From an uncultured Gammaproteobacteria bacterium (GTDB lineage: Bacteria; Patescibacteriota; Microgenomatia; Daviesbacterales; UBA10151): a stretch of 64,000 nucleotides of DNA. Below the pieces are notes generated by a model, which was not told where the DNA came from, ran no database searches, and was given only the letters and a program-made list of their open reading frames with translations. Shown in pieces: positions 24,622-62,515 of this stretch; positions within the stretch are counted from its first letter, which is position 1; each line of letters begins with the position of its first letter. The stretch lies in contig CAYLXC010000001.1 in NCBI GenBank assembly GCA_964387865.1, positions 50,597 to 114,596 on the forward strand, given 5' to 3'. The translations under genes and the position numbers were made by a program.

Positions 24622-26151
24622 TTATAACTCTTCTCTTGCTCGATATTGTAATGCCTCTGCCACATGTTCTGTCTGAATATTTACCTCACCTGCTAAATCC
24701 GCAATAGTTCTTGCAAGTTTCAAAACCTTATGATATCCCCTTGCAGAAAGATTAAGGGAGGAGATTGCCATTTTCAAAAGATTTAATCCCTCTTGATCCA
24801 AATTACAATACTCTTTTATGTCACTATTGCTCATTTCAGAATTACTTATTATTCTTCCCTTGAATCTTCTCAGCTGGATTTTGCGAGCAGCGATAACCCT
24901 GTCCCTTATAGTTTTTGAATCTTCAAATTTCAAATCCGAAGATAATTTATCCACCTCAACTGCTGGTACTTCCAAATAAATATCAATCCTATCCAAGAGT
25001 GGGCCGGAAACTCTCCTTTTATACTTTGCAATTTGACCCGGCATACAAGAACAAATCCTTTTACGATCACCCAAAAATCCGCAAGGACAGGGGTTTTGTG
25101 CAGCAAAAAGCATAAATTGAGCTGGAAAAGTTAAAGAACCTGAAGCTCTTGAGACCGTTATTTTATGATCTTCTAAAGGCTGTCTTAAAGATTCCAAAAC
25201 ATGCCTTGGGAACTCCGGCAACTCGTCCAAAAACAATACCCCTCTGTGTGATAAAGAAATTTCCCCGGGCTTTATATTATTTCCTCCACCCAAAAGCCCA
25301 ACAGCTGAAGCACTGTGATGTGGTGACCTAAAAGGACGAGTTGTAATTAATGAAGATTTCCCATCCAAAAGCCCTGCAACAGAATAAATCTTTGTTATTT
25401 CCAAGGCTTCTTCAAAACTAAGTGGAGGCAAAATTGATGGAAAAGCTCTTGCAAGCATTGTTTTCCCAGCACCTGGTGGACCTTTCAATAAAATATTGTG
25501 TCCTCCTGCTGCAGCAATTTCTAAAGATCTTTTTGCCTGTTCCTGACCTTTTATTTGAGAAAAATCATAATCATATACCCCCTCACCATCCAGCTTTATA
25601 TTTGTTTTCTTAACAGATTTTAAATCTTTTTGCCCCAATAAATATTTGATTAAATCCTGTAAAGATTCAACTGAAAAAACATTCAAATTCTTAACAACAC
25701 TTGCCTCGGATGCATTATCTTTTGGAACAATGACCCCTTTTAATTTTTTCTCTTTTGCCAAAATTGCCAAAGGTAAAATACCATGAGTTCTTCTTAAAGC
25801 ACCGTCCAATGATAATTCCCCGACAAAAAGATAATTTTTCAAATCTTCAATTTTGTCAGTAGGGATTTGTCCGCTGGCAATAAGTAACCCCAAAGCAATT
25901 GGCAAATCATAAGATGGACCTTCCTTAGGCAGATCAGCAGGTGCCAAATTTACAGTAATTTTTCTGGAAGGAAATTCTGCCCCGCAATTTCTTATTGCGG
26001 ATCTAACTCTATCTTTGCTCTCTTCAACAGCCCTATCTGCCAAACCAACAATTGTAAAAGAAGGAAGGGATTGAGAGGAAATATCCACTTCAACAGTGAT
26101 AGGAACTGCATCCAACCCAATATTTGCCCCGGATAGTATTTTTGCAAGCAT
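24622..26151 (-). CDS. comM: YifB/ComM family Mg-chelatase-like AAA+ ATPase
   Basis: N-terminal ChlI-like domain, Walker A GPPGAGKT, and C-terminal Mg-chelatase C domain. 509 aa. Confidence 0.85.
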   Translation of the reverse strand: MLAKILSGANIGLDAVPITVEVDISSQSLPSFTIVGLADRAVEESKDRVRSAIRNCGAEFPSRKITVNLAPADLPKEGPSYDLPIALGLLIASGQIPTDKIEDLKNYLFVGELSLDGALRRTHGILPLAILAKEKKLKGVIVPKDNASEASVVKNLNVFSVESLQDLIKYLLGQKDLKSVKKTNIKLDGEGVYDYDFSQIKGQEQAKRSLEIAAAGGHNILLKGPPGAGKTMLARAFPSILPPLSFEEALEITKIYSVAGLLDGKSSLITTRPFRSPHHSASAVGLLGGGNNIKPGEISLSHRGVLFLDELPEFPRHVLESLRQPLEDHKITVSRASGSLTFPAQFMLFAAQNPCPCGFLGDRKRICSCMPGQIAKYKRRVSGPLLDRIDIYLEVPAVEVDKLSSDLKFEDSKTIRDRVIAARKIQLRRFKGRIISNSEMSNSDIKEYCNLDQEGLNLLKMAISSLNLSARGYHKVLKLARTIADLAGEVNIQTEHVAEALQYRAREEL

Positions 26152-26192
26152 CAGAAAAGGCAGGAATTTTTGGGGCAGAAATATTTTTTGTG

Positions 26193-26494
26193 CCTAGGAA
26201 GATAGTAAGCCAGATTCTGTTTCAAGATGATAATTTATCTAATGCTCCTGATTTCGAAAATCGAGCGAGCAGCTCTTTCGGTTCTAGGATTGCAGCGGGG
26301 AGGATTGCCCGTTTCACTCCCACACCAGATGGTGCGGGATTCGTCACTGTTGCTCTAACTAGTGATTACTCATGCCGATTTACATCGACCACCCTGCTCT
26401 ACGCTGTCTGGACTTTCCTCCACGTTCATGTAAACTACGTTCGTGTAAACCGAATCGTAGTAAACTGAACGTGGTAATCATCCTTCTTCCTAGG
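26193..26494 (-). ncRNA. rnpB: RNase P RNA (bacterial type, reduced)
   Basis: The minus strand contains the P4 signature GGAGGAAAGTCC...AGGGTGG and the 3' P4 strand ACAGAATCTGGCTTAC. P1 is closed by 'cctaggaaga'/'tcttcctagg'. It lies in a 360-nt gene-free gap. The overlapping plus-strand ORF 26124-26468 is spurious. Confidence 0.75.
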
Positions 26495-26510
26495 CCCATA
26501 TATTATACAT

Positions 26511-27497
26511 CTAAACCTTCTTTTCTTCAATTATCTCTGTTGCAATAATTTGTAAAACAACTGCCATAGGCACAGCTAAAAGAGCCCCTCCAAATCCCAA
26601 AAGGCGCGAACCTACTGCAATTGCCAAAATTACAACTAAAGGGTTTAAACCAACAGCCCTTTTCATAACCTGTGGCACAATCAAATGGTTCTCAAGTTGT
26701 TGAATAACAAAATACATTGCTGTAACAGCCAAACTCAAAATTGGGGATATTGTTAATGCTATCAAAATCGAAGGAATTGCTGAAACAATTGGTCCTATTA
26801 CCGGCACTACTTCTAAAACCCCTGCAACAACAGCAAGAGGTAGAGCATATGGAATACCTAAAATAATAAGTCCTATATAAGATAAAAGGCCTATTATTAA
26901 ACTTAAAAAAAGTTGTCCTCTAAGCCATCCTCCCAATTTTTCCTCAATTCTTACTATTATTTTCTTTACCTTATCTTTTCTTCCTATAAAAAGGGATGCA
27001 AATCTCTCTTCCAAATTGTCGCGTTCTAAAAGTAAATAAAATGTCAAAACAAGAAGAAATATGATCATTAAGAAATTATCAAAAATTGATAGTGTAATTG
27101 AGAAAACATTTCCAGGTATACTGCTTAATTGTGATTGTAAAACAGATTTATCTATTGCCGCATTATTTAATAATCTGTCTAGAATTGGTGGAAGTGTTGA
27201 GAATAACTTACGTGTTTCTTCAACAAGCGGAGGTATAATTATAGCAAGTAGACTTGATAAAATCGCTATTATAATAATGTAGGTTATACCAATACCCAAA
27301 GCTTTCGGAAGCTTTAAATTTGTGAAAAATTTAACCATTGGAGATAAAGCAGACATTAAAATTAACGCCACAAATAAAATCAAAAGCAAATCTCTAATTA
27401 AAAATATTAACCAAAGTGATAAGATAAATATGGTAATAAAAATAACTGTTTTATGGGAAATGTCTATTTTTTGTATCATTAATATGGATGATACCAT
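26511..27497 (-). CDS. AI-2E family transporter (PerM/YdiK-like permease)
   Basis: Eight-TM architecture with the AI-2E pattern (N-terminal TM pair, conserved central loop). Confidence 0.75.
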   Translation of the reverse strand: MVSSILMIQKIDISHKTVIFITIFILSLWLIFLIRDLLLILFVALILMSALSPMVKFFTNLKLPKALGIGITYIIIIAILSSLLAIIIPPLVEETRKLFSTLPPILDRLLNNAAIDKSVLQSQLSSIPGNVFSITLSIFDNFLMIIFLLVLTFYLLLERDNLEERFASLFIGRKDKVKKIIVRIEEKLGGWLRGQLFLSLIIGLLSYIGLIILGIPYALPLAVVAGVLEVVPVIGPIVSAIPSILIALTISPILSLAVTAMYFVIQQLENHLIVPQVMKRAVGLNPLVVILAIAVGSRLLGFGGALLAVPMAVVLQIIATEIIEEKKV

Positions 27498-41501: not shown

Positions 41502-41569
41502 ATCGCCACGATACCCAAACTAAACCCAAATGTCAATAGAAAAACAAATCCTCAAATGAAAACCTATAG

Positions 41570-41641
41570 TCGGAGATAAGGGAATTGGACCCTTTGCCTC
41601 TCGGACCCCATCCGAGCGTTCTACCGATGAACTAATCTCCG
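41570..41641 (-). tRNA. tRNA-Pro (anticodon GGG)
   Basis: Minus-strand read CGGAGAU-UA-GUUC/AUCGGUA/GAAC-G-CUCGG/AUGGGGU/CCGAG-AGGCA-AAGGG/UCCAAUU/CCCUU-AUCUCCG-A. All four stems pair and the anticodon is GGG. Confidence 0.8.
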
Positions 41642-49475: not shown

Positions 49476-49871
49476 TTACCTCTTTGGAGATTGTTTTTTA
49501 GCCCTTGCTTTTCCTGCATTACCATATTTTCTTCTTTCTTTAACCCTTGCATCACGAGTTAAGTAACCCTCTTTTTTTAAACTTACACGTAGTGATGGTT
49601 CAGCTTTTACAATAGCCCTTGCTATTCCATGTATAACTGCCTCAAGTTGAGAAACTCTCCCCCCACCTTCCACTTTTACTGAAATACTATATTTACCAAT
49701 AGTTTTAGTAATCTCTAATGGTCTTGTATAAAGTTTTTGGAAAATTGACCCCAAAAAATATTCTGAAATAGGCTTTCCGTTAACAGTAGTTTGACCATTT
49801 CCGGATATTAGTCTCACCCTTGCAATTGCTTCTTTTCTTCTGCCTACTGTGTTTATAAAAGATTCAGCCAC
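49476..49871 (-). CDS. rpsI: 30S ribosomal protein S9
   Basis: C-terminal ...GKARAKKQSPKR and conserved S9 core. Confidence 0.9.
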   Translation of the reverse strand: MAESFINTVGRRKEAIARVRLISGNGQTTVNGKPISEYFLGSIFQKLYTRPLEITKTIGKYSISVKVEGGGRVSQLEAVIHGIARAIVKAEPSLRVSLKKEGYLTRDARVKERRKYGNAGKARAKKQSPKR

Positions 49872-50269
49872 TAAATTACTGCCTCCTCCCCTCTATATAC
49901 TCTTAACTTTTTTATCATTTGCCTTCCCAATCTACTGTGAGGTAACATACCTTTTACGGCATGTTCAATTATATACTCAGGTCTTCTTTCAATAAGTTTA
50001 TCAAACTTTTCAACCTTTAAACCTCCCGGATAACCTGAATGTCTCATATAAATCTTTGTCTGATACTTCTTACCGGAAACTTTTATCTTACTGGCATTTT
50101 TTACAACCACAAAATCTCCTGTATCTAAATAAGGTACATATGAAGCCTTATTTTTTCCCATTAAAATAGTAGCAACTTCTGTTGCTAGCCTTCCCAAAAT
50201 TTTTCCAGATGCATCAATTACGTGCTTTGCTCTTTTTATATCTTTTGCTGATAAAACATTAGTACTCAT
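49871..50269 (-). CDS. rplM: 50S ribosomal protein L13
   Basis: L13 N-terminal pattern ([13 protein letters not shown]). Confidence 0.9.
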
Positions 50270-50297
50270 AATAGAATAAAACTGTTAGAATTATGAA

Positions 50298-50810
50298 TTA
50301 AGCTTTTTTACTCCTTCCTCGTGATTTAATCTTAGGAGAAATGACTTTGGGCTTTGATGTTTTCACAGACACTCCTCTACTTACATCTTTAGTATTTTTC
50401 TCTTCTTTGCTTAATTCTTTATTCTTAATTCTTAATTCTTTTTCCAAAGGTTTCAGCTCCTCTGCTCCAATTAAGCTCATTTTTACCATCATTGTTTGAT
50501 CTCCAAATCTAGTTCCCAATCTTACCAATGATGTGTACCCGGAATTTCTATTAGCTAATTTTGGCACAATCTCTTTAATTAATCTTTCCCTTAAATTTTT
50601 ATCATTAAGAAAAGTCTGCAACCTAGATTGAGTATTTTTTTCTTTTGCAAGATTTACAACCTTATCAACTAAACCTTTAATTGCTTTTGCCTTAGCTTCC
50701 GAGGTCTGGATAGTTCCGTAAGTAAAAAGGGATTGCACTAAACCCTTAAAAAGAGTGTCTCTTTGATCTTTATTTCTACCAAGGTGTTTACCATAAACTC
50801 TATGCCTCAC
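50298..50810 (-). CDS. rplQ: 50S ribosomal protein L17 (with Lys-rich C-terminal extension)
   Basis: MRHRVYGKHLGRNKDQRDTLFKGL L17 signature. Confidence 0.9.
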   Translation of the reverse strand: MRHRVYGKHLGRNKDQRDTLFKGLVQSLFTYGTIQTSEAKAKAIKGLVDKVVNLAKEKNTQSRLQTFLNDKNLRERLIKEIVPKLANRNSGYTSLVRLGTRFGDQTMMVKMSLIGAEELKPLEKELRIKNKELSKEEKNTKDVSRGVSVKTSKPKVISPKIKSRGRSKKA

Positions 50811-51705
50811 TAAGAGTCAACCCCCTTTCAGAAAGCTTTTCTGAAATTAGACTTAATGATTTGGTACCTAAATTTTTAGCTTTTAAAAGTTGAGGTTTCG
50901 GAATATTTATTAAATCCTCAATTGTATTTATCTCAATTGCCTTCAAAGCATTTGTAATACGTACAGGCAAATCCAATTCTTCTATTGTAAGTTTTAAAGT
51001 TTCCTCAGAAATTTTTGATCCCTCTTCTTTAATCTCCTCTTCCATATCAGGTTCATAAACTTTCTTAAAAGTTTCTGATAAAATTTTTGATGCCTCATTT
51101 AAAGCGTCAAGCGGTGTAACAGCTCCATTAGTTGTAATGTCCAAAGTCAATTTATCAAAATCCGCCTTTCTTCCAACTCTGGTTGGATCAACAGAATAAT
51201 TTACGGCAACAACAGGAGAAAATAGCGAATCAATTGAAATTACTCCTATCTCATTTATTTTCCTCTCATCTGCAACTGAATAACCTTTACCAACTTCTGC
51301 TGTTGCTTCCATATTTAATTTAGATTTGGAATCTGTAAGAGTTGCAATTACTTGATCTCCATTTACTATTTCCCCGTCCCCCTCTATCTCAAAATCCGAA
51401 GCTTTTACAACTTTTTTGCCTGATGCTTTAACAGTCAATTTTATCCCTTTTTCTGAATGAATTTGAAGGCGAACCTTTTTTAAATTTAAAATTATTTCAA
51501 TTACATCTTCCAAGATTCCATCAATTGTTGAAAATTGATGTGAAACTCCATCAATTTTTACAGAAGTTATAGCAGCACCCTTAAGGGATGCGAGCAGTAC
51601 CCTCCTTAGACTGTTTCCCAAAGTATGACCAAAACCCTCCTCTAAAGGTTCAAGTACGATCTTTGCAAAATTATCTTTTTCAACTACTATCTTTACTTTA
51701 AACAT
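50800..51705 (-). CDS. rpoA: DNA-directed RNA polymerase subunit alpha
   Basis: N-terminal domain plus alpha-CTD. The start is reset to the ATG at 51705 (MFKVKIV...); the table extension to 51744 runs through an intergenic hairpin. Confidence 0.85.
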   Translation of the reverse strand: MFKVKIVVEKDNFAKIVLEPLEEGFGHTLGNSLRRVLLASLKGAAITSVKIDGVSHQFSTIDGILEDVIEIILNLKKVRLQIHSEKGIKLTVKASGKKVVKASDFEIEGDGEIVNGDQVIATLTDSKSKLNMEATAEVGKGYSVADERKINEIGVISIDSLFSPVVAVNYSVDPTRVGRKADFDKLTLDITTNGAVTPLDALNEASKILSETFKKVYEPDMEEEIKEEGSKISEETLKLTIEELDLPVRITNALKAIEINTIEDLINIPKPQLLKAKNLGTKSLSLISEKLSERGLTLSEA

Positions 51706-51795
51706 ATCGTTCCTTCTGTCATTCCTGCGAAAGCAGGAATCCATACAAATAATTATTATATGGATCCCGTATCAAGTACGGGATGACGTTTCATG

Positions 51796-52398
51796 TCATC
51801 TTGAATAATATTCAACAATCAACTGCTCATCAATTGATTGTTCCATCTCATCTCTTGTAGGAATTCTTAAAACCCTGCCTATTGTAGCTTTTCTTTCAAG
51901 CCACTCTGGCAAGGTTTCAATTTCCTCCAGGCTGCTTTTAATTTGAGTATTATCTCTTAATTTATCAGATAATGCAATAGTTTGACCTATCCTTACCTGA
52001 AAGGATGGGAAAGCTACCTTTTTGTCATCTATCCTAATATGGCCATGTGTTACAAGTTGTCTTGCCCCAGCTCTGCTTTTGGTAAAACCTAATTTATAAA
52101 CAATATTATCTAGTCTTGTTTCCAAAGCTTGTAATAAACTTAATCCTGTTGCGCCCTTAACTTTAGAAGCCTTTTGAACATATCCCTTAAACTGTTTCTC
52201 CAATATTCCATATAATCTTTTTGCTTTTTGTTTCTCGCGAAGCTGTAAACCGTATTCGGATACGCGTCTTCGCATTCTTGCACCATGTTGTCCAGGAGGT
52301 ACTGCCCCTTTTCTCTCCAACGCCTTTACATCCTTTGTAAATAAGGGTAAACCTTCACGTCTACTTAATCTTCGTTTTGGTCCAGTATACCTAGCCAT
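51796..52398 (-). CDS. rpsD: 30S ribosomal protein S4
   Basis: MARYTGPKRRLSRREG N-terminus. Confidence 0.9.
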   Translation of the reverse strand: MARYTGPKRRLSRREGLPLFTKDVKALERKGAVPPGQHGARMRRRVSEYGLQLREKQKAKRLYGILEKQFKGYVQKASKVKGATGLSLLQALETRLDNIVYKLGFTKSRAGARQLVTHGHIRIDDKKVAFPSFQVRIGQTIALSDKLRDNTQIKSSLEEIETLPEWLERKATIGRVLRIPTRDEMEQSIDEQLIVEYYSR

Positions 52399-52524
52399 TT
52401 TTATTTGGACTTTTCTGAATTTCCTTTTTCAATGATTTAGGTTTATCTCACGAAAAGTCCAGTTCTACCTCCTTCTTGTCATTTATTTTTTTAATTCTTT
52501 ATTCATAATTCTTAATTCATAATT

Positions 52525-52923
52525 CTAAACGCGTCTGCGTTTTTTTGGTCTTGGTCCATTATGTGGAATTGGCGTCACATCAGCAATCATTGTTATATTT
52601 ATTCCTGCAGACCTTAAAGCTTTAATTGTTGCATCTCTTCCTGATCCAGGACCTTTTATATACACTTCACAACTACTCATCCCAAAACCTTTGGCTTTTT
52701 GTGCAACTGTCTCCATGGCAGAGATTGCAGCAAAAGGGGTTGCTTTTCTTGCCCCCTTAAATCCGGATCCGCCGGATGATCCCCATGCAAGAGTATTACC
52801 TTGAGAATCAGTTAAAGTTACCAAAGTATTATTAAAAGTTGCAGTCACATATACTCTACCGGATGTTAACTTCCGTTCTACTACCTTCTTTGTTGGTCTA
52901 GATTTTATTTGTTTCTTAGTCAT
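52525..52923 (-). CDS. rpsK: 30S ribosomal protein S11
   Basis: Conserved S11 core (TFNNTLVTLTD...GSS). Confidence 0.9.
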   Translation of the reverse strand: MTKKQIKSRPTKKVVERKLTSGRVYVTATFNNTLVTLTDSQGNTLAWGSSGGSGFKGARKATPFAAISAMETVAQKAKGFGMSSCEVYIKGPGSGRDATIKALRSAGINITMIADVTPIPHNGPRPKKRRRV

Positions 52924-52963
52924 AATATTGTTCCATCTCCTTCATGTTATCCTCTCACCTAAT

Positions 52964-53407
52964 TTATTTAACTCCTCCTTCTACACTCTTAACCTCTTCC
53001 GTTGTCTTTACTGCTGTTGGTCCGCCCATTTTCTCAACTGCTTCTTTTCTGAGAGTACCAACGGTTTTTCTTTTACCTCTTTTTGTTCTGGCATTTGATC
53101 TGGTTCTTTGGCCTCTTGAGGGTAAACCTCTCCTGTGTCTTAAACCCCTATAACTTCCAATCTCCTCAAGCCTTTTTATATTTTGTTCAACTTCCTGCCT
53201 TAAATCTCCCTCCACTTTAATTTGCTCAACAGCTTTTTGAAGTTTTTTTACTTCTTCCTCAGTTAAATCCTTAATTCTTTTTGCTCCATCAACTCCGGAA
53301 TCTTTAATTATCCCAACCACGTTTGACCTCCCTATACCAAATATATAGGTAAGCCCAATATCAACTCGTTTTTGTTCCGGCAAATCAACTCCAGCTATAC
53401 GTGCCAT
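52964..53407 (-). CDS. rpsM: 30S ribosomal protein S13 (C-terminal basic extension)
   Basis: [11 protein letters not shown]-terminus. Confidence 0.9.
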
Positions 53408-53412
53408 TAGAC

Positions 53413-53447
53413 AATTCTCCTTTTTTGATATTTGATATTTGATATTT
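53413..53447. repeat. heptanucleotide tandem repeat (gatattt)x5 in the rpmJ-rpsM spacer
   Basis: 'ttgatatttgatatttgatatttgatatttgaaatt' read directly from the sequence. Confidence 0.8.
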
Positions 53448-53464
53448 GATATTTGAAATTCATA

Positions 53465-53581
53465 TTATCCTTGTCTCTGTTTATGCCTCGGGTCACGAGG
53501 GCATATAACATACAACACGCCTTCGCGCTTTACTATTTTGCAAAATTTACATCTTGTTTTTATGCTTGCCTGTACTTTCAT
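53465..53581 (-). CDS. rpmJ: 50S ribosomal protein L36
   Basis: Minus-strand [41 protein letters not shown] (38 aa). Zinc-ribbon L36 consensus. Not in the table because of the size cutoff. Confidence 0.85.
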
Positions 53582-53641
53582 AGTTAAGTTAAAAGTAGAA
53601 AGTTTAAAGTAAAAAAATTTTTCCTTTTTACTTTTGCCTTT

Positions 53642-53884
53642 TTACTTTAATCTAAATGTAATCCTCCCTTTATCCAAATCATACTGCGGACTCATCTCAA
53701 CCCTTACCCTATCTCCTTCCAAAAGCCTGATGTAGTGCATCCTCATTTTACCCGAGATATGGCACAAAATCACTCTGCCTACTAATTCAGGCAGTTTGGA
53801 ACTTTCCTCAATCTCGACTCTAAACAAGGTATTGGGTAAAACCTCTTGGACTTTACCCGCAATCTCTATTACATCCTTAGCCAT
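53642..53884 (-). CDS. infA: translation initiation factor IF-1
   Basis: S1-like OB fold ([12 protein letters not shown]...FRVE...). Confidence 0.9.
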
Positions 53885-53941
53885 ATGTTTTTTGGATCGT
53901 ATGATTGTATCAGAACCAACCTACAAATACAACCCATAGCA

Positions 53942-54715
53942 TTAATCTTCCAAAGACGTCAAAACTTTAGCACTTTCTCTACCCACAATAACCGTCATTT
54001 CAAAAAGGCCACCCCATGACTTATCTGCAGCAGAGTATGTCCATCCATCCTCTGATAAAACTACATCCGGTGATCCTTTCGTATAAATAACCTCAAGCGC
54101 TAAACTCATCCCGACTTTTAGAATTGGACCCTTATTTTTTTCTCCATAACCTGGAATTTCAGGTTCCTCATGCAAACTCCTGCCTACCCCGTGTCCAACC
54201 AAAGCTCTGACAATACTATACCTTGCCCCTTCTACTCTACTTTGTATAGCATTTGAAATATCTCCAACCCTGTTTCCATCTAAAGCCTTTGAAACCCCAT
54301 CCCACAAAGCCTTCTCTCCAGTATTCAAAAACCTTTCCTTTTCATCATACTTTCCCCTTTCCCCTTTCCCCTTTCCCCTAACCAATACACTCCACGCACA
54401 ATCTGTATGCCAACCCTTAAAACTTACTGCCAAATCAACTGAAACCAAATCCCCCTCCTCAAATTTTCTATCAGTTGGTATACCATGTACAACTTTCTCA
54501 TTTACCGTAATACAAGTTGCATATTTATATCCAGCTACACTCTTGTAAGATAAATCGCCGCCTAATCTATAAATCTCTTCTTGAGCAATCCTATCAACTT
54601 CAAGTTCTGAAACCCCTACCTTTATTGATTCCAAGGACTTTCTTAAAGCAGAGGATGCAATCTTGCCACTTTTTCTCATAAGCTTTAATTCATATTTGTT
54701 TAATCTTCTAATCAT
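53942..54715 (-). CDS. map: type I methionine aminopeptidase
   Basis: Pita-bread fold with metal ligands (D..D, H, E, E). Confidence 0.85.
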   Translation of the reverse strand: MIRRLNKYELKLMRKSGKIASSALRKSLESIKVGVSELEVDRIAQEEIYRLGGDLSYKSVAGYKYATCITVNEKVVHGIPTDRKFEEGDLVSVDLAVSFKGWHTDCAWSVLVRGKGKGERGKYDEKERFLNTGEKALWDGVSKALDGNRVGDISNAIQSRVEGARYSIVRALVGHGVGRSLHEEPEIPGYGEKNKGPILKVGMSLALEVIYTKGSPDVVLSEDGWTYSAADKSWGGLFEMTVIVGRESAKVLTSLED

Positions 54716-55245
54716 TTAGACAAATTTGATCTTAATCTTTTCTGGATTGCATCCACCTCCCCCACCCCATCTATTTCAACTAATATTCCCTTATTTTTGT
54801 AGTATTCAAGTAATGGTTGCGTTTGCAGATAATAAAGTCCCAACCTTGTTCTGATTAATTCTTCGCTGTCATCTTCCCTGCCTCTTTTTAAAAGCCTTTC
54901 TAACACCACATCTTCCGCTACTTTTAAATAAAATACTTTATTAAAATTTGGATCAAAAGTTTTAAGCTGTACAATATTTCTGGGATAACCATCCATAATA
55001 AAACCGTTCTTGCAATCCTCCTTCTTTAACCTTTCCTGAACTATCTTGGATGTTGTCTCATCATTAATAAGTCTACCTTCATCCAAAATCTGCTTTACAC
55101 TTTTACCCTGATCTGTGTCCTGATTTGACAAATTTCTAAAAATATCTCCTGTACTTACAAGGGGAACTTTTAGAAATTGCGATAATAATTTTGCCTGAGT
55201 GGACTTACCCGATCCCTGAGAACCAATAAGTAGTACTTTTGTCAT
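54712..55245 (-). CDS. adk: adenylate kinase (short form without zinc lid)
   Basis: P-loop [10 protein letters not shown]. Confidence 0.85.
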
Positions 55246-56534
55246 CTTCTTGCAAATACCTCATAACTTCTTTCAATAAGCTTTGATTCAAACTGCTTTG
55301 CTGTATCCATAATAACTGAAACAACTATCAAAAGTCCTGTTCCACCTAAAACCAAGGTCTCTATCCCCGTAATTTGTGAGGCAATGGATGGCAAAATTGC
55401 AATTGATCCTAAAAAAATTGCTCCAGCCAGCGTGATTCTTACCATAATATAGTTTAGATATGCAGCTGTTTGAGTACCTGGTCTTATTCCAGGAATAAAT
55501 CCACCATATTTTTTGATTTCATCGGAAACTTTAGTTGGATTAAAAATAACGGCCGTATAAAAAAAAGTAAATCCTACTACCAAAAGAAAATACGTCAGAT
55601 TATAAACCAGACTTGAGGGATCAAAATTTGCAGCCAAAATCCTTCCTAAAAAAGACAGTTGTGGTTGATTTAATTGAGCAAGATAAGATCCTGCAAAAGA
55701 GGGAATCAATACTAAAGATACTGCAAAAATTATTGGGATGACTCCTGCCTGGTTAACTCTAAGCGGAAGATAAGTTTGAGCACCGGTTCCACCCTCTTTT
55801 CCCCCTATAAATCTTCTTGCATAAGCAACTTTTACTTGTCTTCTGCCTTCATTTATAAATACAATTCCTGCAATTACCAAAATTGATAGGCCTAAGAAAA
55901 TTAAGATATTTAAGCTTTGCGTCTGATCAAATACAGTTGCTGTTTGGGTTAAAACAACAGGTAGTCTTGCCACAATTCCCGCAAAAATAAGAAGTGATAT
56001 TCCGTTTCCAATCCCGTACTCTGTTATAAGTTCTCCAAGCCACATTAAAAAAATAGTTCCTGCAGTCATACCAATTATAATGGCTGCAATTTGTATCGGG
56101 GTTGTCTGATGCAAAACTCCCTGGTTCTTTAGTAAAACAAACATCCCGATGGCTTGGAGTGCGCTTAAAGGGACAGTCAGATATCTTGTGTATTGATTAA
56201 TCATTTGCCTTCCCATTTCACCTTCTTTAGATAAGGCTTCAAGGCGGGGTATAATCATTGTTAAAAGCTGCATGATAATCGATGCATTAATATATGGATT
56301 AAGTCCTAAAGAAATAATTGAAAAATTTGCCAAAGTTCCACCGGAGAAAATATCCAAAAGACTTAAAAATTGATTAGATGCAAAAAGTTGCTGCAGCGCT
56401 ATTAAGTCTACCCCGGAAACAGGGATGTGAGAAACTATCCGAAAAATTATAACTATTATTACAGTTATGATAATTTTTCTTCTTAATTCCTTAATTTTGA
56501 ACGCAGAAATTATGGGTGAGAGGATATTAGACAT
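55242..56534 (-). CDS. secY: preprotein translocase subunit SecY
   Basis: Ten-TM SecY pattern. 430 aa. Canonical position in the spc operon. Confidence 0.9.
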
Positions 56535-56964
56535 TTTCTACTTTCCCTCCCTTTTTCTCAATTTCTATCTTTGCTTTTTTAGAAACTGGCAATCTGATAA
56601 TTAAGGATTGGGTCAACCCCCCACCTGACAAAATCTTAACTCCCCTTTTAATATCTTTTTCACCAATAAGTTTTGCCTTCAAAAGATATTCTAAATCAAT
56701 TACGGTCTTCGACTTAAAGATATTTAATTTATTTAAATTAATTGGTTTGGGTTTTAAAGATATAACTCTATTTCCTAAACCACGTCTCAATGGAAGTTTC
56801 TTATAAGTTGGAAGCCCTGCCCCGCTAAATCCCACAGGCATCTTGCCTCGCGCTTTTTGACCTTTAGAGCCACGTCCTGCTGTTCTCCCTTTTCCAGAAC
56901 CAAGCCCACGTCCAAGACGTTTATTACTTTTAGTAACTGCCTTTTGTAATTGGTTCAGTTTCAT
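56527..56964 (-). CDS. rplO: 50S ribosomal protein L15
   Basis: Gly/Arg/Lys-rich N-terminus ([15 protein letters not shown]). Confidence 0.9.
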
Positions 56965-57497
56965 ACTCCACCCCTCATCTGTCTCAGCTCACCTAATGCT
57001 TTCATTGTTGCATAAACATTAGATGTCCTGTTTTTGGTTCCCAAAGATTTTGATACAACATCATGAACACCAGCTGCCTCAACAACCACTCTGACTGCCC
57101 CACCTGCAATTACTCCGCTACCCTCTGGTGCAGGTTTTAGCAAAACTTGCGCTGCTCCATATTTTACTAAAATTTGGTGAGGAATGGTTCTTCCCTTAAG
57201 TGGAACATTAATTAAGTGTTTTTTTGCATATGTTGTTGCCTTCCTTACCGCTGATTGAACTTCTGATGCTTTGCCCAACCCCACCCCAACTCTTCCTTTC
57301 CTATCTCCAACAACAACGAGTACTGAAAGAGATCTTCTGTCTCCTCCTTTTGTCTTTTTAGAAACACGATTAATTTGAACAACCCTTTCAAAAAATTCTG
57401 AATCTTGCTCAAGCTGATTTCTATTGCTTGAATAGTTTCTGTTACCTCTATTATATTGATTCATAAAACTAAAACTCCAACCCCCTTTCTCTTGCAC
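56961..57497 (-). CDS. rpsE: 30S ribosomal protein S5 (start possibly ATG at 57464)
   Basis: S5 dsRBD and C-terminal domain. The table start overlaps rplR by 29 nt; the internal Met (MNQYN...) is more likely. It directly abuts rplO, so no L30 gene lies between them. Confidence 0.85.
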
Positions 57498-57810
57498 CTT
57501 TCGCTAATTCTGCTATTCTTCCCTGATACAAAAACCCGCCTCTATCAAAAACTACACTTTTAATTTTACTCTTTATAGCTTTTTCAGCCAACTTTTTACC
57601 AACCTCATAAGCTTTTTGCTTTTTATTCATCTTATTTCCCGCAATTTTTGCATCAGATGCTGACACTAAAGTTTTATTAACTGTATCATCAATAATCTGT
57701 GCATAGATATGTTTATTTGATCTAAACACAGAAAGTCTTGGGCGCCTCGCTGTCCCAAAAATTTTCTTTCTAATCTTCTTATGCTTTCTTACCCTTAATA
57801 CTTTATACAT
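57469..57810 (-). CDS. rplR: 50S ribosomal protein L18
   Basis: Conserved L18 C-terminus ([23 protein letters not shown]). Confidence 0.9.
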
Positions 57811-57818
57811 ACTACTTT

Positions 57819-58385
57819 CTACTTACTACCCACTGCCCCGGCAACTCCTACCTTGGCACTCTTACCAACTTTCTTTCTTATATATTCTCCTTGATATCTA
57901 ATTCCCTTACCTTTATAAACATCTGGCACTCTAACCTTTTTAATATTTGCTGCAATTTGTCCAACCAATTGTTTATCAATACCGGAAACTTTTATCTTTG
58001 TATTATCAGAAATCTCAAATGTTATACCCTCAGGTGATTCAATTTCCACAGGATGGGAATAACCAACATTCAAAATCAGTTTATTTCCATTTACTTGTGC
58101 CCTAAAACCAACTCCCTGAAGTTCCAAATCTTTACTCCATCCATCAGTTACCCCCAAAATCATATTGGCAATCAAGTTACGAATTAAGCCATGCAAAGCC
58201 TTGATTCTTTTTTGGTCATTATCCCTTTTAACAATCAATTTATCACCTTCAACCTCCACCTTAATTTCTGGAACCATATTTAAACTAAGTCTACCTTTGG
58301 GCCCATTAACCACCAAATCATTTCCAGTTTTTTCAACTGTTACTCCAGAAGGTATAATAATAGGTGTATCTCCAATCCTACTCAT
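57819..58385 (-). CDS. rplF: 50S ribosomal protein L6
   Basis: [16 protein letters not shown]-terminus. Confidence 0.9.
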
Positions 58386-58387
58386 AT

Positions 58388-58765
58388 CTACCAGACGAGC
58401 GCTAGGACCTCCCCTCCCACCTTTTGTTTTCTAGCTTCTCTTTCTGTCATTAATCCTTTAGGGGTTGAGATTACTGCAATACCTAACCCATTTAGCACAG
58501 AAGGTAAGGTGGAAACTCCTTTATAAACCCTTAAAGAGGGCTTAGAAACTCTTTTTATATCAACAATAGCAGGTTTTCGGCCCTCATATTTTAGCGAAAC
58601 AATAACTTCTCTACCTTTTGTCTCAACAGATTGAACATATCCCTCATTTTGTAAAAGTTTCATAAGTTTCACAATAAGTTTCGAGTATTTGACTGATACT
58701 GATTGTTTACCAACCATATACCCATTTTTTATTCTGATTAATGCATCTGCAATAGAGTCACTCAT
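58388..58765 (-). CDS. rpsH: 30S ribosomal protein S8
   Basis: MSDSIADALIRIKNG N-terminus. Confidence 0.9.
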   Translation of the reverse strand: MSDSIADALIRIKNGYMVGKQSVSVKYSKLIVKLMKLLQNEGYVQSVETKGREVIVSLKYEGRKPAIVDIKRVSKPSLRVYKGVSTLPSVLNGLGIAVISTPKGLMTEREARKQKVGGEVLALVW

Positions 58766-58771
58766 TTGTCA

Positions 58772-58951
58772 TCACCAACTCGCTTTCTTCACCCCAGGTA
58801 ATAACCCTTGGTGAGCTAAATCTCTGAAACAAAGCCTGCAAAGTCCGAATTTTCTAATAAATGCCCTTGCTCTTCCACAACGCATGCATCTGCTTCTTTT
58901 TTGAACATCATATTTAAATTTAGTTTTTACAATATTACTTACTTTTGCCAT
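58772..58951 (-). CDS. rpsZ: 30S ribosomal protein S14 type Z (zinc-binding, 59 aa)
   Basis: Minus-strand [62 protein letters not shown] with a CxxC...CxxC motif. Not in the table (size cutoff). Confidence 0.85.
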
Positions 58952-58953
58952 AG

Positions 58954-59493
58954 CTAACTCCTAAAAGGCATACCTAAATATTCCAATAGTTTTCTGCCTT
59001 CCTCTTTATTTTTTGCAGTTGTTGTAATAGTAATTGCCAAACCTCTTGTTTTATCAACGGTTTTATAATCCACCTCCGGAAAAATTGTCTGCTCCTTTAA
59101 ACCAATATTTAAATTTCCAAAACTGTCAAATGATTTTTCAGATATTCCTTTAAAATCTCTAACCTTTGGTAAAACAACGCTTACCACCTTATCCAAAAAA
59201 GCATACATTCTTACTCCTCTTAAAGTTACCATCATACCAATTGGCTGACCCTTAGTTACTTTAAATGAGGCAACAGATTTTTTTGCATGCGTTATAACAG
59301 GAGTTTGTCCTGCCAAAGATGACAAGTACACCTTAACTTTATCCAAAATCCCCTGATTATCTTTTGCTTCACCAAGACCTATATTTACAACAATTTTTTC
59401 AAGCCTTGGGACAGCCAGTCTGTTTTTTAACCCAAGCTCCTCTTGCAGTTTTTTCTGCACTTCATTTAGGTACTTATCTTTAAGTCTGTTCAT
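58954..59493 (-). CDS. rplE: 50S ribosomal protein L5
   Basis: [13 protein letters not shown]-terminus. Confidence 0.9.
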
Positions 59494-59501
59494 AATTCTT
59501 G

Positions 59502-59590
59502 CCGATTTGACAATTTGAATACAATTTTTAATTCAAATTGTCATCCTGATCCGGCGAAGCCGGAGAAGGATCTCCTTCATGAGTCCTCTC
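59502..59590 (+). repeat. repeat family A copy in the rplE-rplX spacer (13-bp-stem hairpin 'tgacaatttgaat/attcaaattgtca' + 'tcctga' + GC hairpin 'tccggcgaagccgga' + 'gaaggatctccttcatgagtcc')
   Basis: Read directly from the sequence. It fills almost the entire 103-nt spacer. Confidence 0.75.
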
Positions 59591-59596
59591 ACTTCC

Positions 59597-59902
59597 TCAT
59601 TTAAACTCCTTCTTACATTTTTTACATATCCTCATCTTGTCTTTACCAACCACCTTGAACCCCACCCTTGTTACTTTTTTACAATTTGGACAAATCAAGC
59701 CGACATTTGATACATCCAAAGGTTTTGGAATATTAATTATTCCACCTTCAATTTGTCCTTGTTTTTTTACATGTCTCTTATAAATATTTGCACCTTCAAC
59801 AAACACTTTTCCCTCTCCTGCTTTCACATAAGCCACATTTCCTTCTTTTCCCCTATCTTTACCAAGTATTATTTTAACTTTGTCGCCTTTTTTAATCTTC
59901 AT
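59597..59902 (-). CDS. rplX: 50S ribosomal protein L24 (KOW) with C-terminal zinc-ribbon (CPNC...CKKC)
   Basis: MKIKKGDKVKII KOW start. The table ORF begins 6 codons upstream. Confidence 0.85.
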   Translation of the reverse strand: MKIKKGDKVKIILGKDRGKEGNVAYVKAGEGKVFVEGANIYKRHVKKQGQIEGGIINIPKPLDVSNVGLICPNCKKVTRVGFKVVGKDKMRICKKCKKEFK

Positions 59903-59913
59903 CTTTTCTCTCC

Positions 59914-60282
59914 CTACCAAACCTCCTGTGCTAAAGAAACAATCTTGCTAAACCCTGCATCCCTTATTTCCCTTGCAATTGGTCCAAATATCCTTGTTGC
60001 TCTCAAATTTCCCTCATTATCAATAACAACACCTGCATTATCATCAAATTTTACATATGAACCATCCTCACGTCTTATTTCTTTTTTGCATCTGACAATA
60101 ACTATCCTTACAATTTCATGATCTTTAACCTGACCATTAGGGTCTGCCCCTTTCACAACCCCTACAACAAGTTGTCCTAATGTGGCTTTCCTTTTTCCGG
60201 ATCCGCCAAGAGGCTGAATTACCTGCAGCGCTTTTGCTCCGCTATTATCTGCAACTGTTAACATTGTCCTATGTTGTACCAT
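59914..60282 (-). CDS. rplN: 50S ribosomal protein L14
   Basis: [17 protein letters not shown] canonical start. The table ORF (to 60384) is an upstream read-through extension overlapping rpsQ. Confidence 0.85.
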
Positions 60283-60703
60283 GGGCCCCTTTCTTTTTTC
60301 GTGGCTTTTTCTGTTTCTCATCCATTTTTCTCTCTGTCTGAGGACTCGCTTCGCGAAGCGAGCTGGCGACTGACGACTCTTCAATCTTTTCTTCTGGCAT
60401 TACTTGCCTGCCGACAGGCACGGCCTCAGCAATTATTCCTTCTGCTTCTTTTTTCAGTTTTTCCTCAGCAATTTCAGCAAGGTTTCTGCCTAAAACTTTT
60501 GTAATCTTCCAATGTTTATTTTTAGAAATTGGTCGGCATTTAATAATATCTACGATATCCCCTATTTTTACTCCAATTGGGTCATCAACCAAAAATCTTT
60601 TGCTTTGCACATAGGTTTTTTTATACAAAGGATGCATTGCCATTCTCTCCACCAAAACCGTGACTGTATTTTTTAATTTTGTTGACACAACTCTTCCAAT
60701 CAT
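60269..60703 (-). CDS. rpsQ: 30S ribosomal protein S17 (about 60-aa Lys-rich C-terminal extension)
   Basis: [18 protein letters not shown]-fold start. Confidence 0.85.
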
Positions 60704-60948
60704 AACTTTGACTCCTTATGACTTATCTGACTCTTTGACTCTAATTCAGCAAGTAGCTCTTTTTGCCTCATAACTGTCAGCACTTGTGCCAAATCTCTTC
60801 TTTTTTTAGAAATCTTCTTCACATCCTTTAATTTCTTCATATTTTTATCCATTACCAAATTTGCTATTTCATCTTTAATGTTTTTAGCTTTATTTCTTAG
60901 TTCTTTTGGGTCCAAACCCTTTATTTGTGTTAGTTCGTTCTTTTTCAT
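60700..60948 (-). CDS. rpmC: 50S ribosomal protein L29
   Basis: Helical L29 pattern (ELRNK...L). 82 aa. Confidence 0.8.
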   Translation of the reverse strand: MKKNELTQIKGLDPKELRNKAKNIKDEIANLVMDKNMKKLKDVKKISKKRRDLAQVLTVMRQKELLAELESKSQISHKESKL

Positions 60949-60961
60949 AATTTTCTACTTA

Positions 60962-61036
60962 GCCGATTTGACAATTTGAATATAATTTCTGAATTCAAAT
61001 TGTCATCCTGAGCGAGCGTAGCGAGTCGAAGGATCT
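60962..61036 (+). repeat. repeat family A copy in the rpmC-rplP spacer
   Basis: 'ccgatttgacaatttgaatataatttctgaattcaaattgtcatcctgagcgagcgtagcgagtcgaaggatct'. Confidence 0.75.
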
Positions 61037-61039
61037 TCA

Positions 61040-61453
61040 TCATATTTTCCCCACGATCTTTGTATTAAGTGGCAGTTTATGGGAAGCTAACCTTAATGCT
61101 TCATGAGCAACAATTTCTGTAACTGCTCCCATTTCAAAAATTAACTGTCCTCTCTTTACAACAGCTACATACCCCTCTACATCACCTTTTCCAGATCCCA
61201 TCCTTGATTCTGCGGGATGTTTGGTAACAGGTTTATCCGGAAAAATCCTAATCCAAATTCTTCCACCTCTTTGGGTATAATGAGCCATTGCACGCCTTGC
61301 AGATTCAATTTGTCTTGCACTTATCCACCCATTTTCCATAGATTTTAGTCCAAATGCTCCAAAGGCAAGTCTGTTGCCTCTTGTGGCAACACCTCCTCTT
61401 GTCCCCTTAAACATTTTTCGGTATTTAGTTCTTTTCGGTTGTAACAGTGCCAT
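61040..61453 (-). CDS. rplP: 50S ribosomal protein L16
   Basis: [14 protein letters not shown]-terminus. Confidence 0.9.
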
Positions 61454-62094
61454 TAAATCTCAACCTCCCCTTTATTTATCCATACCTTTACACCAACATA
61501 TCCTGATTTTGTTAATGCAGGATAAACCGAAAAATCTATATCTGCTCTTAATGTATGTAAAGGCATTGTTCCTGAGGCTTTCCATTCACGTCTCGCAATT
61601 TCTGCCCCCCCAATCCTTCCTGATATAACAACTCTTACACCTTTTGCCCCGGATCTCATAACCCTATCTATTGCCTGATTCATTACTCTTTGTGCAGGCA
61701 ATCTCTTTGCAAGTTGTTCAGCAACAGATTGTGCAACTAAATAGGCAGAAAGATCAGCAGATTTCAACTCCATAGGCACAATTTCCAAACTATTTTCATC
61801 TTTTAAATTAAGTCCCTTCATCAAAAATTTCTTAATCTCAGTGAGCCCACTACCTCCTCTTCCAATTAAAACTCCCGGGCGGGATACGAAAATTATCACC
61901 TTGAGCTTATTAACTGCCCGTTCAATTTCAACGGATTGAATACTCGCAGGCCTTAATTTTTTCATAAGCAAATCCCTAATCTTTATGTCTTCTAAAACAT
62001 TTTGCTTATACTTTTCACCTTTGGCAAACCATCTTGATTTCCAGGTTGCCGAAGTACCCATTCTGAAACCGACAGGATGTATCTTTTGTCCCAT
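61453..62094 (-). CDS. rpsC: 30S ribosomal protein S3
   Basis: [11 protein letters not shown] and KH domain. Confidence 0.9.
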
Positions 62095-62125
62095 AAGTTA
62101 GGGTTAAGGGTTAAGGGAAAAGTTT

Positions 62126-62515
62126 TTATTCTTTACCCTTTACGCTTTCCGCTTTACCCTTACCTCCTTTCTTACTATCCACTTTTCCCTCATCACTTAA
62201 CACTATCTTTATATGACTCATTCTTCTTTTATACGGCTTAACCCTGCCTCTTGATCCTGCTCTAAAACGGCGCATTTTTGTGCTTTCATTAATTTCAAAT
62301 TTTTTAAATCCTACCTTTTCTACATCCATTCCAGCATGTTTAGCATTTGCCAAAACTGTTTGTATGGCTTTTACCAAATCTCTTCCAGCTACTTTTGGTG
62401 TTACCATTAAAACATCAACTGCCTTTTGAGGCTCCATTCCTCTAACCATATCAGCAACCAACCTCAGCTTCCTGGGGCTAGTATGTATATAGCGTTGTAT
62501 TGTTTGTATTTCCAT
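62126..62515 (-). CDS. rplV: 50S ribosomal protein L22
   Basis: L22 core (ISPRKLRLVADMVRG). Confidence 0.9.
   Translation of the reverse strand: MEIQTIQRYIHTSPRKLRLVADMVRGMEPQKAVDVLMVTPKVAGRDLVKAIQTVLANAKHAGMDVEKVGFKKFEINESTKMRRFRAGSRGRVKPYKRRMSHIKIVLSDEGKVDSKKGGKGKAESVKGKE

Follow-up and report, generated by a model that had tools for sequence, protein, structure and literature searches.

The DNA analyzed here, which we refer to as the window, is a stretch of 64,000 nucleotides whose minus strand carries a gene for a ComM/Mg-chelatase-like ATPase (24622-26151) and a gene for an AI-2E family transporter (26511-27497). The two flank a gap of 359 nt, bounded by the start of comM (26151) and the stop of the permease gene (26511), and miaA and a methyltransferase gene lie farther upstream. 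On the plus strand, mechanical ORF calling yields a 114-aa ORF with a TTG start (26124-26468). Elsewhere in the window, there is a long run of tightly packed small ORFs of 113-430 aa, all on the minus strand (49476-62515), which looks like a ribosomal-protein-type operon.

We searched the whole 64-kb window with Rfam cmscan against all 4227 families at curated thresholds and obtained three matches: two tRNAs and RF00010, the bacterial RNase P RNA class A family. RNase P RNA is the catalytic subunit of the enzyme that trims the 5' leader off tRNA precursors. The RF00010 match lies in the gap on the minus strand (26190-26493; 304 nt), spans the full model (positions 1-367), and scores 117 bits against a gathering score of 100 (E = 3.9e-35). 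The original prediction had placed a reduced RNase P RNA at 26193-26494, within 3 nt of this match, and the covariance-model search which it proposed as a check thus returned the family above the curated threshold. When the surrounding 600 bases were rescanned permissively, RF00010 was again the best model of the RNase P clan, and no rival family appeared; apart from it, the scan gave just a snoRNA match at chance level (E = 3.2). The RNA also folds 6.7 standard deviations more stably than dinucleotide shuffles of itself (MFE z-score -6.7). We refer to the gene as rnpB. Its neighbor ComM is 70-80% identical to proteins of Candidatus Daviesbacteria MAGs and 60% identical to those of other Patescibacteria, and the higher of these identities supports a CPR origin of the locus.

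Core structure and absent helices

We drew the secondary structure by hand, starting from the Rfam alignment and checking each pair. All of the core helices could be drawn with standard pairs (P1-P12 and P15-P17, including the P4 and P6 pseudoknots). The strands that had been quoted in the original prediction are all present on the minus strand where it had put them: GGAGGAAAGUCC at 26421-26410, AGGGUGG at 26395-26389, ACAGAAUCUGGCUUA at 26220-26206, and a 9-bp closing helix of CUAGGAAGA (26493-26485) with UCUUCCUAG (26202-26194); P1 through P4 do form. P1 contains 10 standard pairs between its 5' strand (26483-26493) and its 3' strand (26194-26205), and P2 contains six. The long-range helix P4, with its usual bulged U, is built from the conserved GGAAAGUCC and ACAGAA..GGCUUA strands; its 5' strand, AAG-U-CCAGA (26407-26415), inside the conserved GGAGGAAAGUCC, makes eight standard pairs with UCUGGCUU (26207-26214), inside the conserved ACAGAAUCUGGCUUA. 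The P6 pseudoknot joins GAGCA in J5/7 (26395-26399) to the L17 loop UGCUC (26267-26271) by five standard pairs. The remaining helices (P5, P7, P8, P9, P10, P11, P15, P16, and P17) all form in the hand-drawn structure.

Two further regions of this fold agree with class A. The specificity domain (26297-26394) comprises P7, P8, P9, P10, P11, and a P12 of nine pairs, together with the conserved J11/12 (ACAG) and J12/13 (GUGAAA) expected of a class A RNA. The P15-P16-P17 arm (26246-26289) is present together with the P6 pseudoknot, a combination which sets class A apart from class B. Both L8 and L9 are GUAA in the window RNA. In other class A RNAs, L8 contacts P4 and L9 contacts P1, linking the two domains (PMC8457005), and by analogy the GNRA loops of the window RNA may do the same. 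P1-P5 and P15-P17 with the P4 and P6 pseudoknots constitute the catalytic domain and P7-P12 the specificity domain, and the RNA together with the small RnpA protein would cleave the 5' leader from tRNA precursors.

The peripheral helices P13/P14 and P18, which a typical class A RNA possesses, are physically absent, not merely diverged. At the former P13/P14 site, 9 nt (GUGAAACGG; 26309-26317, minus strand) bridge P12 straight to P11, and the 43 model positions of these helices are matched by 0 residues. At the former P18 site, 14 nt (GCAUUAGAUAAAUU; 26232-26245, minus strand) bridge P15 straight to P2, and 22 model positions are deleted. These are the same helices whose loss had been guessed at in advance. 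P13/P14 and P18 serve as peripheral struts whose loops normally dock on P8. They are known to vary within the bacterial class A family (PMC8172020 and PMC8457005).

A further departure from typical class A RNAs concerns the L15 internal loop, whose 3' side (26250-26254) reads AAAUC and lacks the GGU motif; none of the relatives has GGU at this position either. The motif is typical of class A and is not universal in it. Where present, it pairs with the 3'-RCCA of the tRNA (PMC4919922). The two tRNA genes of the window, tRNA-Gln(CUG) and tRNA-Pro(GGG) (Rfam tRNA matches at 2280-2351 and 41569-41641, both on the minus strand), have no encoded 3'-CCA, the next letters being CAC and CUA. The missing GGU fits with tRNA genes of this kind, of which the window offers only these two.

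P3 is longer than in canonical class A RNAs. It spans 26420-26474 (minus strand) and contains ∼21 bp, consisting of 11 outer pairs and a 10-pair inner extension (P3b; 26434-26461, minus strand). In the Rfam alignment, P3b is an insertion of ∼31 nt in the P3 loop which is absent from all relatives, and it folds with the outer P3 as one continuous hairpin. The motif GUUUAC occurs three times in P3 at exactly 15-nt spacing (26465, 26450, and 26435), TRF reports a period-15 repeat at 26422-26450, and the two hairpins, inner and outer, look alike. Probably P3b originated when the arms of the hairpin were duplicated locally.

Covariation and synteny among orthologues

Scans for ComM in genomes and metagenomes gave us 16 related loci, which we designate by L numbers. 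By Rfam, rnpB adjoins comM in 12 of the 16, and seven of these RNAs are distinct full-length sequences. We counted pairs in a MAFFT alignment of the window RNA and the seven distinct orthologues (eight sequences) against the hand-drawn structure. As drawn, 94.1% of cells held standard pairs, a percentage which is inflated because the structure came from one of the aligned sequences, compared with 35-47% when the 3' partners were slid by 1-3 columns. The number of pairs with changes on both sides, which is not inflated in this way, was 29 as drawn and 6-11 when slid. None of 500 column shuffles equaled any of the five measures.

The covariation falls mostly in P3, P8, P9, P16, P17, and P12, and also in the P6 pseudoknot. 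It affects eight of the 11 outer pairs of P3 and four pairs each in P8 and P9. P6 is paired in 100% of cells in the eight sequences, with a compensatory CG to UA change in two, and in P1, 97.5% of the relatives' cells are paired and one pair has undergone a compensatory change from CG to UA. P12 is paired in 66% of cells in an alignment that is partly wrong there because its length differs between sequences. P4, P5, P10, and P15 are invariant across the eight sequences, so covariation there speaks neither for nor against the drawing. L8 and L9 are GNRA tetraloops in all eight.

The miaA/AI-2E/rnpB/comM slot is kept in 10 further loci with a full gene set (seven distinct sequences), and L002 has a truncated rnpB beside comM. 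The comM loci L006 and L007, which come from Peregrinibacteria and Saccharibacteria, have no rnpB nearby, and the synteny is therefore limited to the Daviesbacteria-like clade. The MAGs containing L002 and L005 (CAZFYQ010000012.1 and CAYMRP010000004.1) are titled 'uncultured Gammaproteobacteria bacterium'; their ComM proteins are 77% and 60% identical to that of the window, the rnpB/comM arrangement is the same, and these labels are probably wrong.

Within this clade, the helix complement is a mosaic. Both P13/14 and P18 are absent from L001, L003, L012, and L015 as well as from the window; L010 keeps the P18 hairpin and has no P13/14; and L004 and L005 have P18 and, where P13/14 would be, a short element containing the hairpin ACC-GCAA-GGU. 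Since relatives in the same slot keep P18 or a P13/14 element, the ancestral RNA was bacterial, and its helices have disappeared in place on more than one occasion. P3 ranges from ∼4 to ∼21 pairs and the total RNA length from 269 to 333 nt across the clade, and L003 has an insertion in J2/4. The RNAs of L001 (2117-2385) and L015 (2637-2905), at 269 nt, are very small as bacterial RNase P RNAs go. That of L015 scores 95.4 bits, just under the gathering score of 100, and a standard annotation run would consequently miss it. In L005 and L013, a run of CGTCTCT repeats (ctcgtctctcgtctctcgtctctcgtctct; L005:9573-9642, 70 nt) separates the AI-2E gene from the 3' end of rnpB; the window has no such run.

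Upstream of the RNA, we found a sigma-70-like promoter, TTGAAG-17-TATAAT (26502-26530, minus strand), whose -10 box stops 8 nt short of the RNA 5' end and which is the only promoter-like site in 25900-26800. In every relative, regardless of the orientation of rnpB, a -10-like box followed by an 8-nt spacer lies just in front of the gene; this box is TATAAT in L001 and L003, as in the window, and L010 has the weaker TAAAAT. These sequence features suggest that rnpB has a sigma-70-type promoter of its own, with a predicted transcription start at or near the 5' end of the match. No terminator-like site was found between the RNA and comM, so read-through from rnpB into comM is possible. A motif search of all six frames of the 64-kb window for rnpA (RNR motif) and rpmH (L34 motifs) gave nothing convincing, and we assume that the RnpA partner is encoded elsewhere in the genome.

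The orientation of rnpB varies among the loci. It is co-oriented with its neighbors only in the window and in L001, L009, and L016 and is opposite to them in seven other distinct loci, and the -10 box and 8-nt spacer travel with the flipped gene. The -35 hexamer of the window, TTGAAG, lies within the final codons of AI-2E (..IIEEK..), and the same sequence is found in L010, where rnpB faces away. A transcription unit of ∼330 bp seems to have been inverted cleanly and in place. We considered the P1 terminal inverted repeat as a mediator of the flip and rejected it: the -10 box and spacer, which are upstream of P1, move as well, meaning that the inversion extends beyond the P1-to-P1 interval.

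Assessment of alternative readings

We conclude, with a probability of about 95%, that the locus is the rnpB gene of a Candidatus Daviesbacteria-like CPR bacterium, encoding a catalytic RNase P RNA of class A in a trimmed form. Three other readings could account for parts of the evidence. If the plus-strand ORF were a real protein gene, the RNase P likeness on the opposite strand would be secondary, and its 114 open codons are indeed the longest stop-free stretch in the gap. Yet this ORF begins with TTG and overlaps the comM start head-on by 28 nt, matches no Pfam family, and is absent, as the exact sequence submitted, from a collection of 15 billion proteins (weak evidence, as the query may start with L instead of M; an exact look-up of the AI-2E permease in the protein collection gave no match either). 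The original prediction had described the gap as called as this ORF; the ORF does exist at its position, but the ENA contig carrying the exact locus has no gene called in the gap. Among orthologous loci, the stretch without stops on the antisense strand can be anywhere between 57 and 121 aa long and is only 57-77 aa in four relatives, while the changes that separate these relatives are pairwise compensatory for the RNA helices. The chance that the ORF encodes a protein is therefore close to nil, and we regard it as spurious.

That the gene is a decaying, nonfunctional relic of rnpB, with tRNA 5' processing performed by a protein-only enzyme of the HARP/PRORP type or by another rnpB copy, is very unlikely. 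Such a reading would draw on the loss of several peripheral elements and of the CCA-binding motif, and protein-only RNase P is known in some bacteria (Aquificaceae; PMC8172020). A relic, however, would not be expected to have all five conserved core regions and both pseudoknots intact, a structure held by compensatory changes among relatives with ComM down to 60% identity, and a conserved promoter; and natural class A RNAs without P18 are known, as are archaeal ones without both P13/P14 and P18 (PMC8457005; PMC4919922). The archaeal RNAs raise the reading that an archaeal type A RNase P RNA was acquired horizontally, since their helix set, also without P13/P14 and P18, is the same (PMC4919922). 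We give this hardly any credence: the bacterial class A model scores best within the RNase P clan, and close relatives in the same slot still hold P18 or a P13/14 remnant, the mark of stepwise loss in place from a bacterial ancestor. A trimmed bacterial class A rnpB remains our reading of the locus.

A stronger claim could be built on this reading, namely that the close orthologues (same slot, ComM 60-80% identical) form a natural deletion series, in which L8-P4 and L9-P1 are the only struts left to a functioning bacterial class A ribozyme, CCA pairing is dispensed with, and compensation comes from something undescribed, for instance the longer P3, changes to RnpA, or an additional protein. 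We consider this improbable, if less so than the alternatives above.

Relation to known RNase P RNAs

The window RNA shares with Escherichia coli M1 RNA and the Thermotoga maritima RNA the helices P1-P12 and P15-P17, the P4 and P6 pseudoknots, and GNRA loops L8 and L9, as well as the conserved regions GGAGGAAAGUCC, ACAG, GUGAAA, GCAA, and ACAGAA..GGCUUA. It differs from canonical class A RNAs in having 304 nt against the 367 positions of the RF00010 consensus, in agreement with the shorter-than-typical length noted beforehand, in having no P13/P14, P18, or L15 GGU, and in its longer P3. The class A RNAs of Aquificales and Chlorobium likewise have no P18 and no L18-P8 strut; as far as is reported in PMC8457005, P18 is the only helix lost from them, whereas the window RNA is also without P13/P14 and GGU. 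Archaeal type A RNA, whose core is class A-like, matches the window RNA in its set of helices and likewise has neither P13/P14 nor P18, and archaeal RNase P contains about five proteins (PMC4919922). In contrast, the window RNA matches the bacterial model best and belongs to a bacterial genome, and its losses are recent and in place.

We conclude that the window RNA is an ordinary housekeeping RNA gene of an already published reduced type. It is only mildly unusual, by virtue of its locally duplicated P3 extension, the mosaic helix loss among its close relatives, and the in-place flip in orientation. The assignment has little practical value beyond showing that a gap which might otherwise stay blank, or receive a spurious ORF, contains an essential RNA gene. 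The orthologues that differ in P18, P13/14, and P3 could also serve as natural variants for studying how the domains of the ribozyme hold together.

A literature search for RNase P naming Patescibacteria returned nothing relevant; the closest published set is that of Lui et al. 2021 (PMC8172020), who studied 35 circularized CPR genomes, Microgenomatia included. The CCA-binding motif was missing in 23 of the 35 CPR RNAs, and the authors regarded the loss of P13, P14, and P18 as not unusual and the loss of P12 and P15-P17 as remarkable (PMC8172020). The claim that the window encodes a reduced CPR RNase P RNA of this kind is borne out, with a CPR/Patescibacteria host backed by ComM and by the four-gene synteny shared with Candidatus Daviesbacteria MAGs, peripheral helices (P13/P14 and P18) and the CCA motif lost, and the core conserved. 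The locus therefore adds one further example to the published picture of trimmed CPR RNase P RNAs, and nothing known is changed by it. Common to the window RNA and to those of Lui et al. are the RF00010 class A core, the loss of P13/P14, P18, and the CCA-binding motif, and the lengthening of some helices (PMC8172020). The window RNA differs from theirs in scoring above the gathering score, so that no lowered threshold was needed, in retaining P12 and P15-P17, which are missing in some of theirs, and in carrying its own extension in P3 (PMC8172020).
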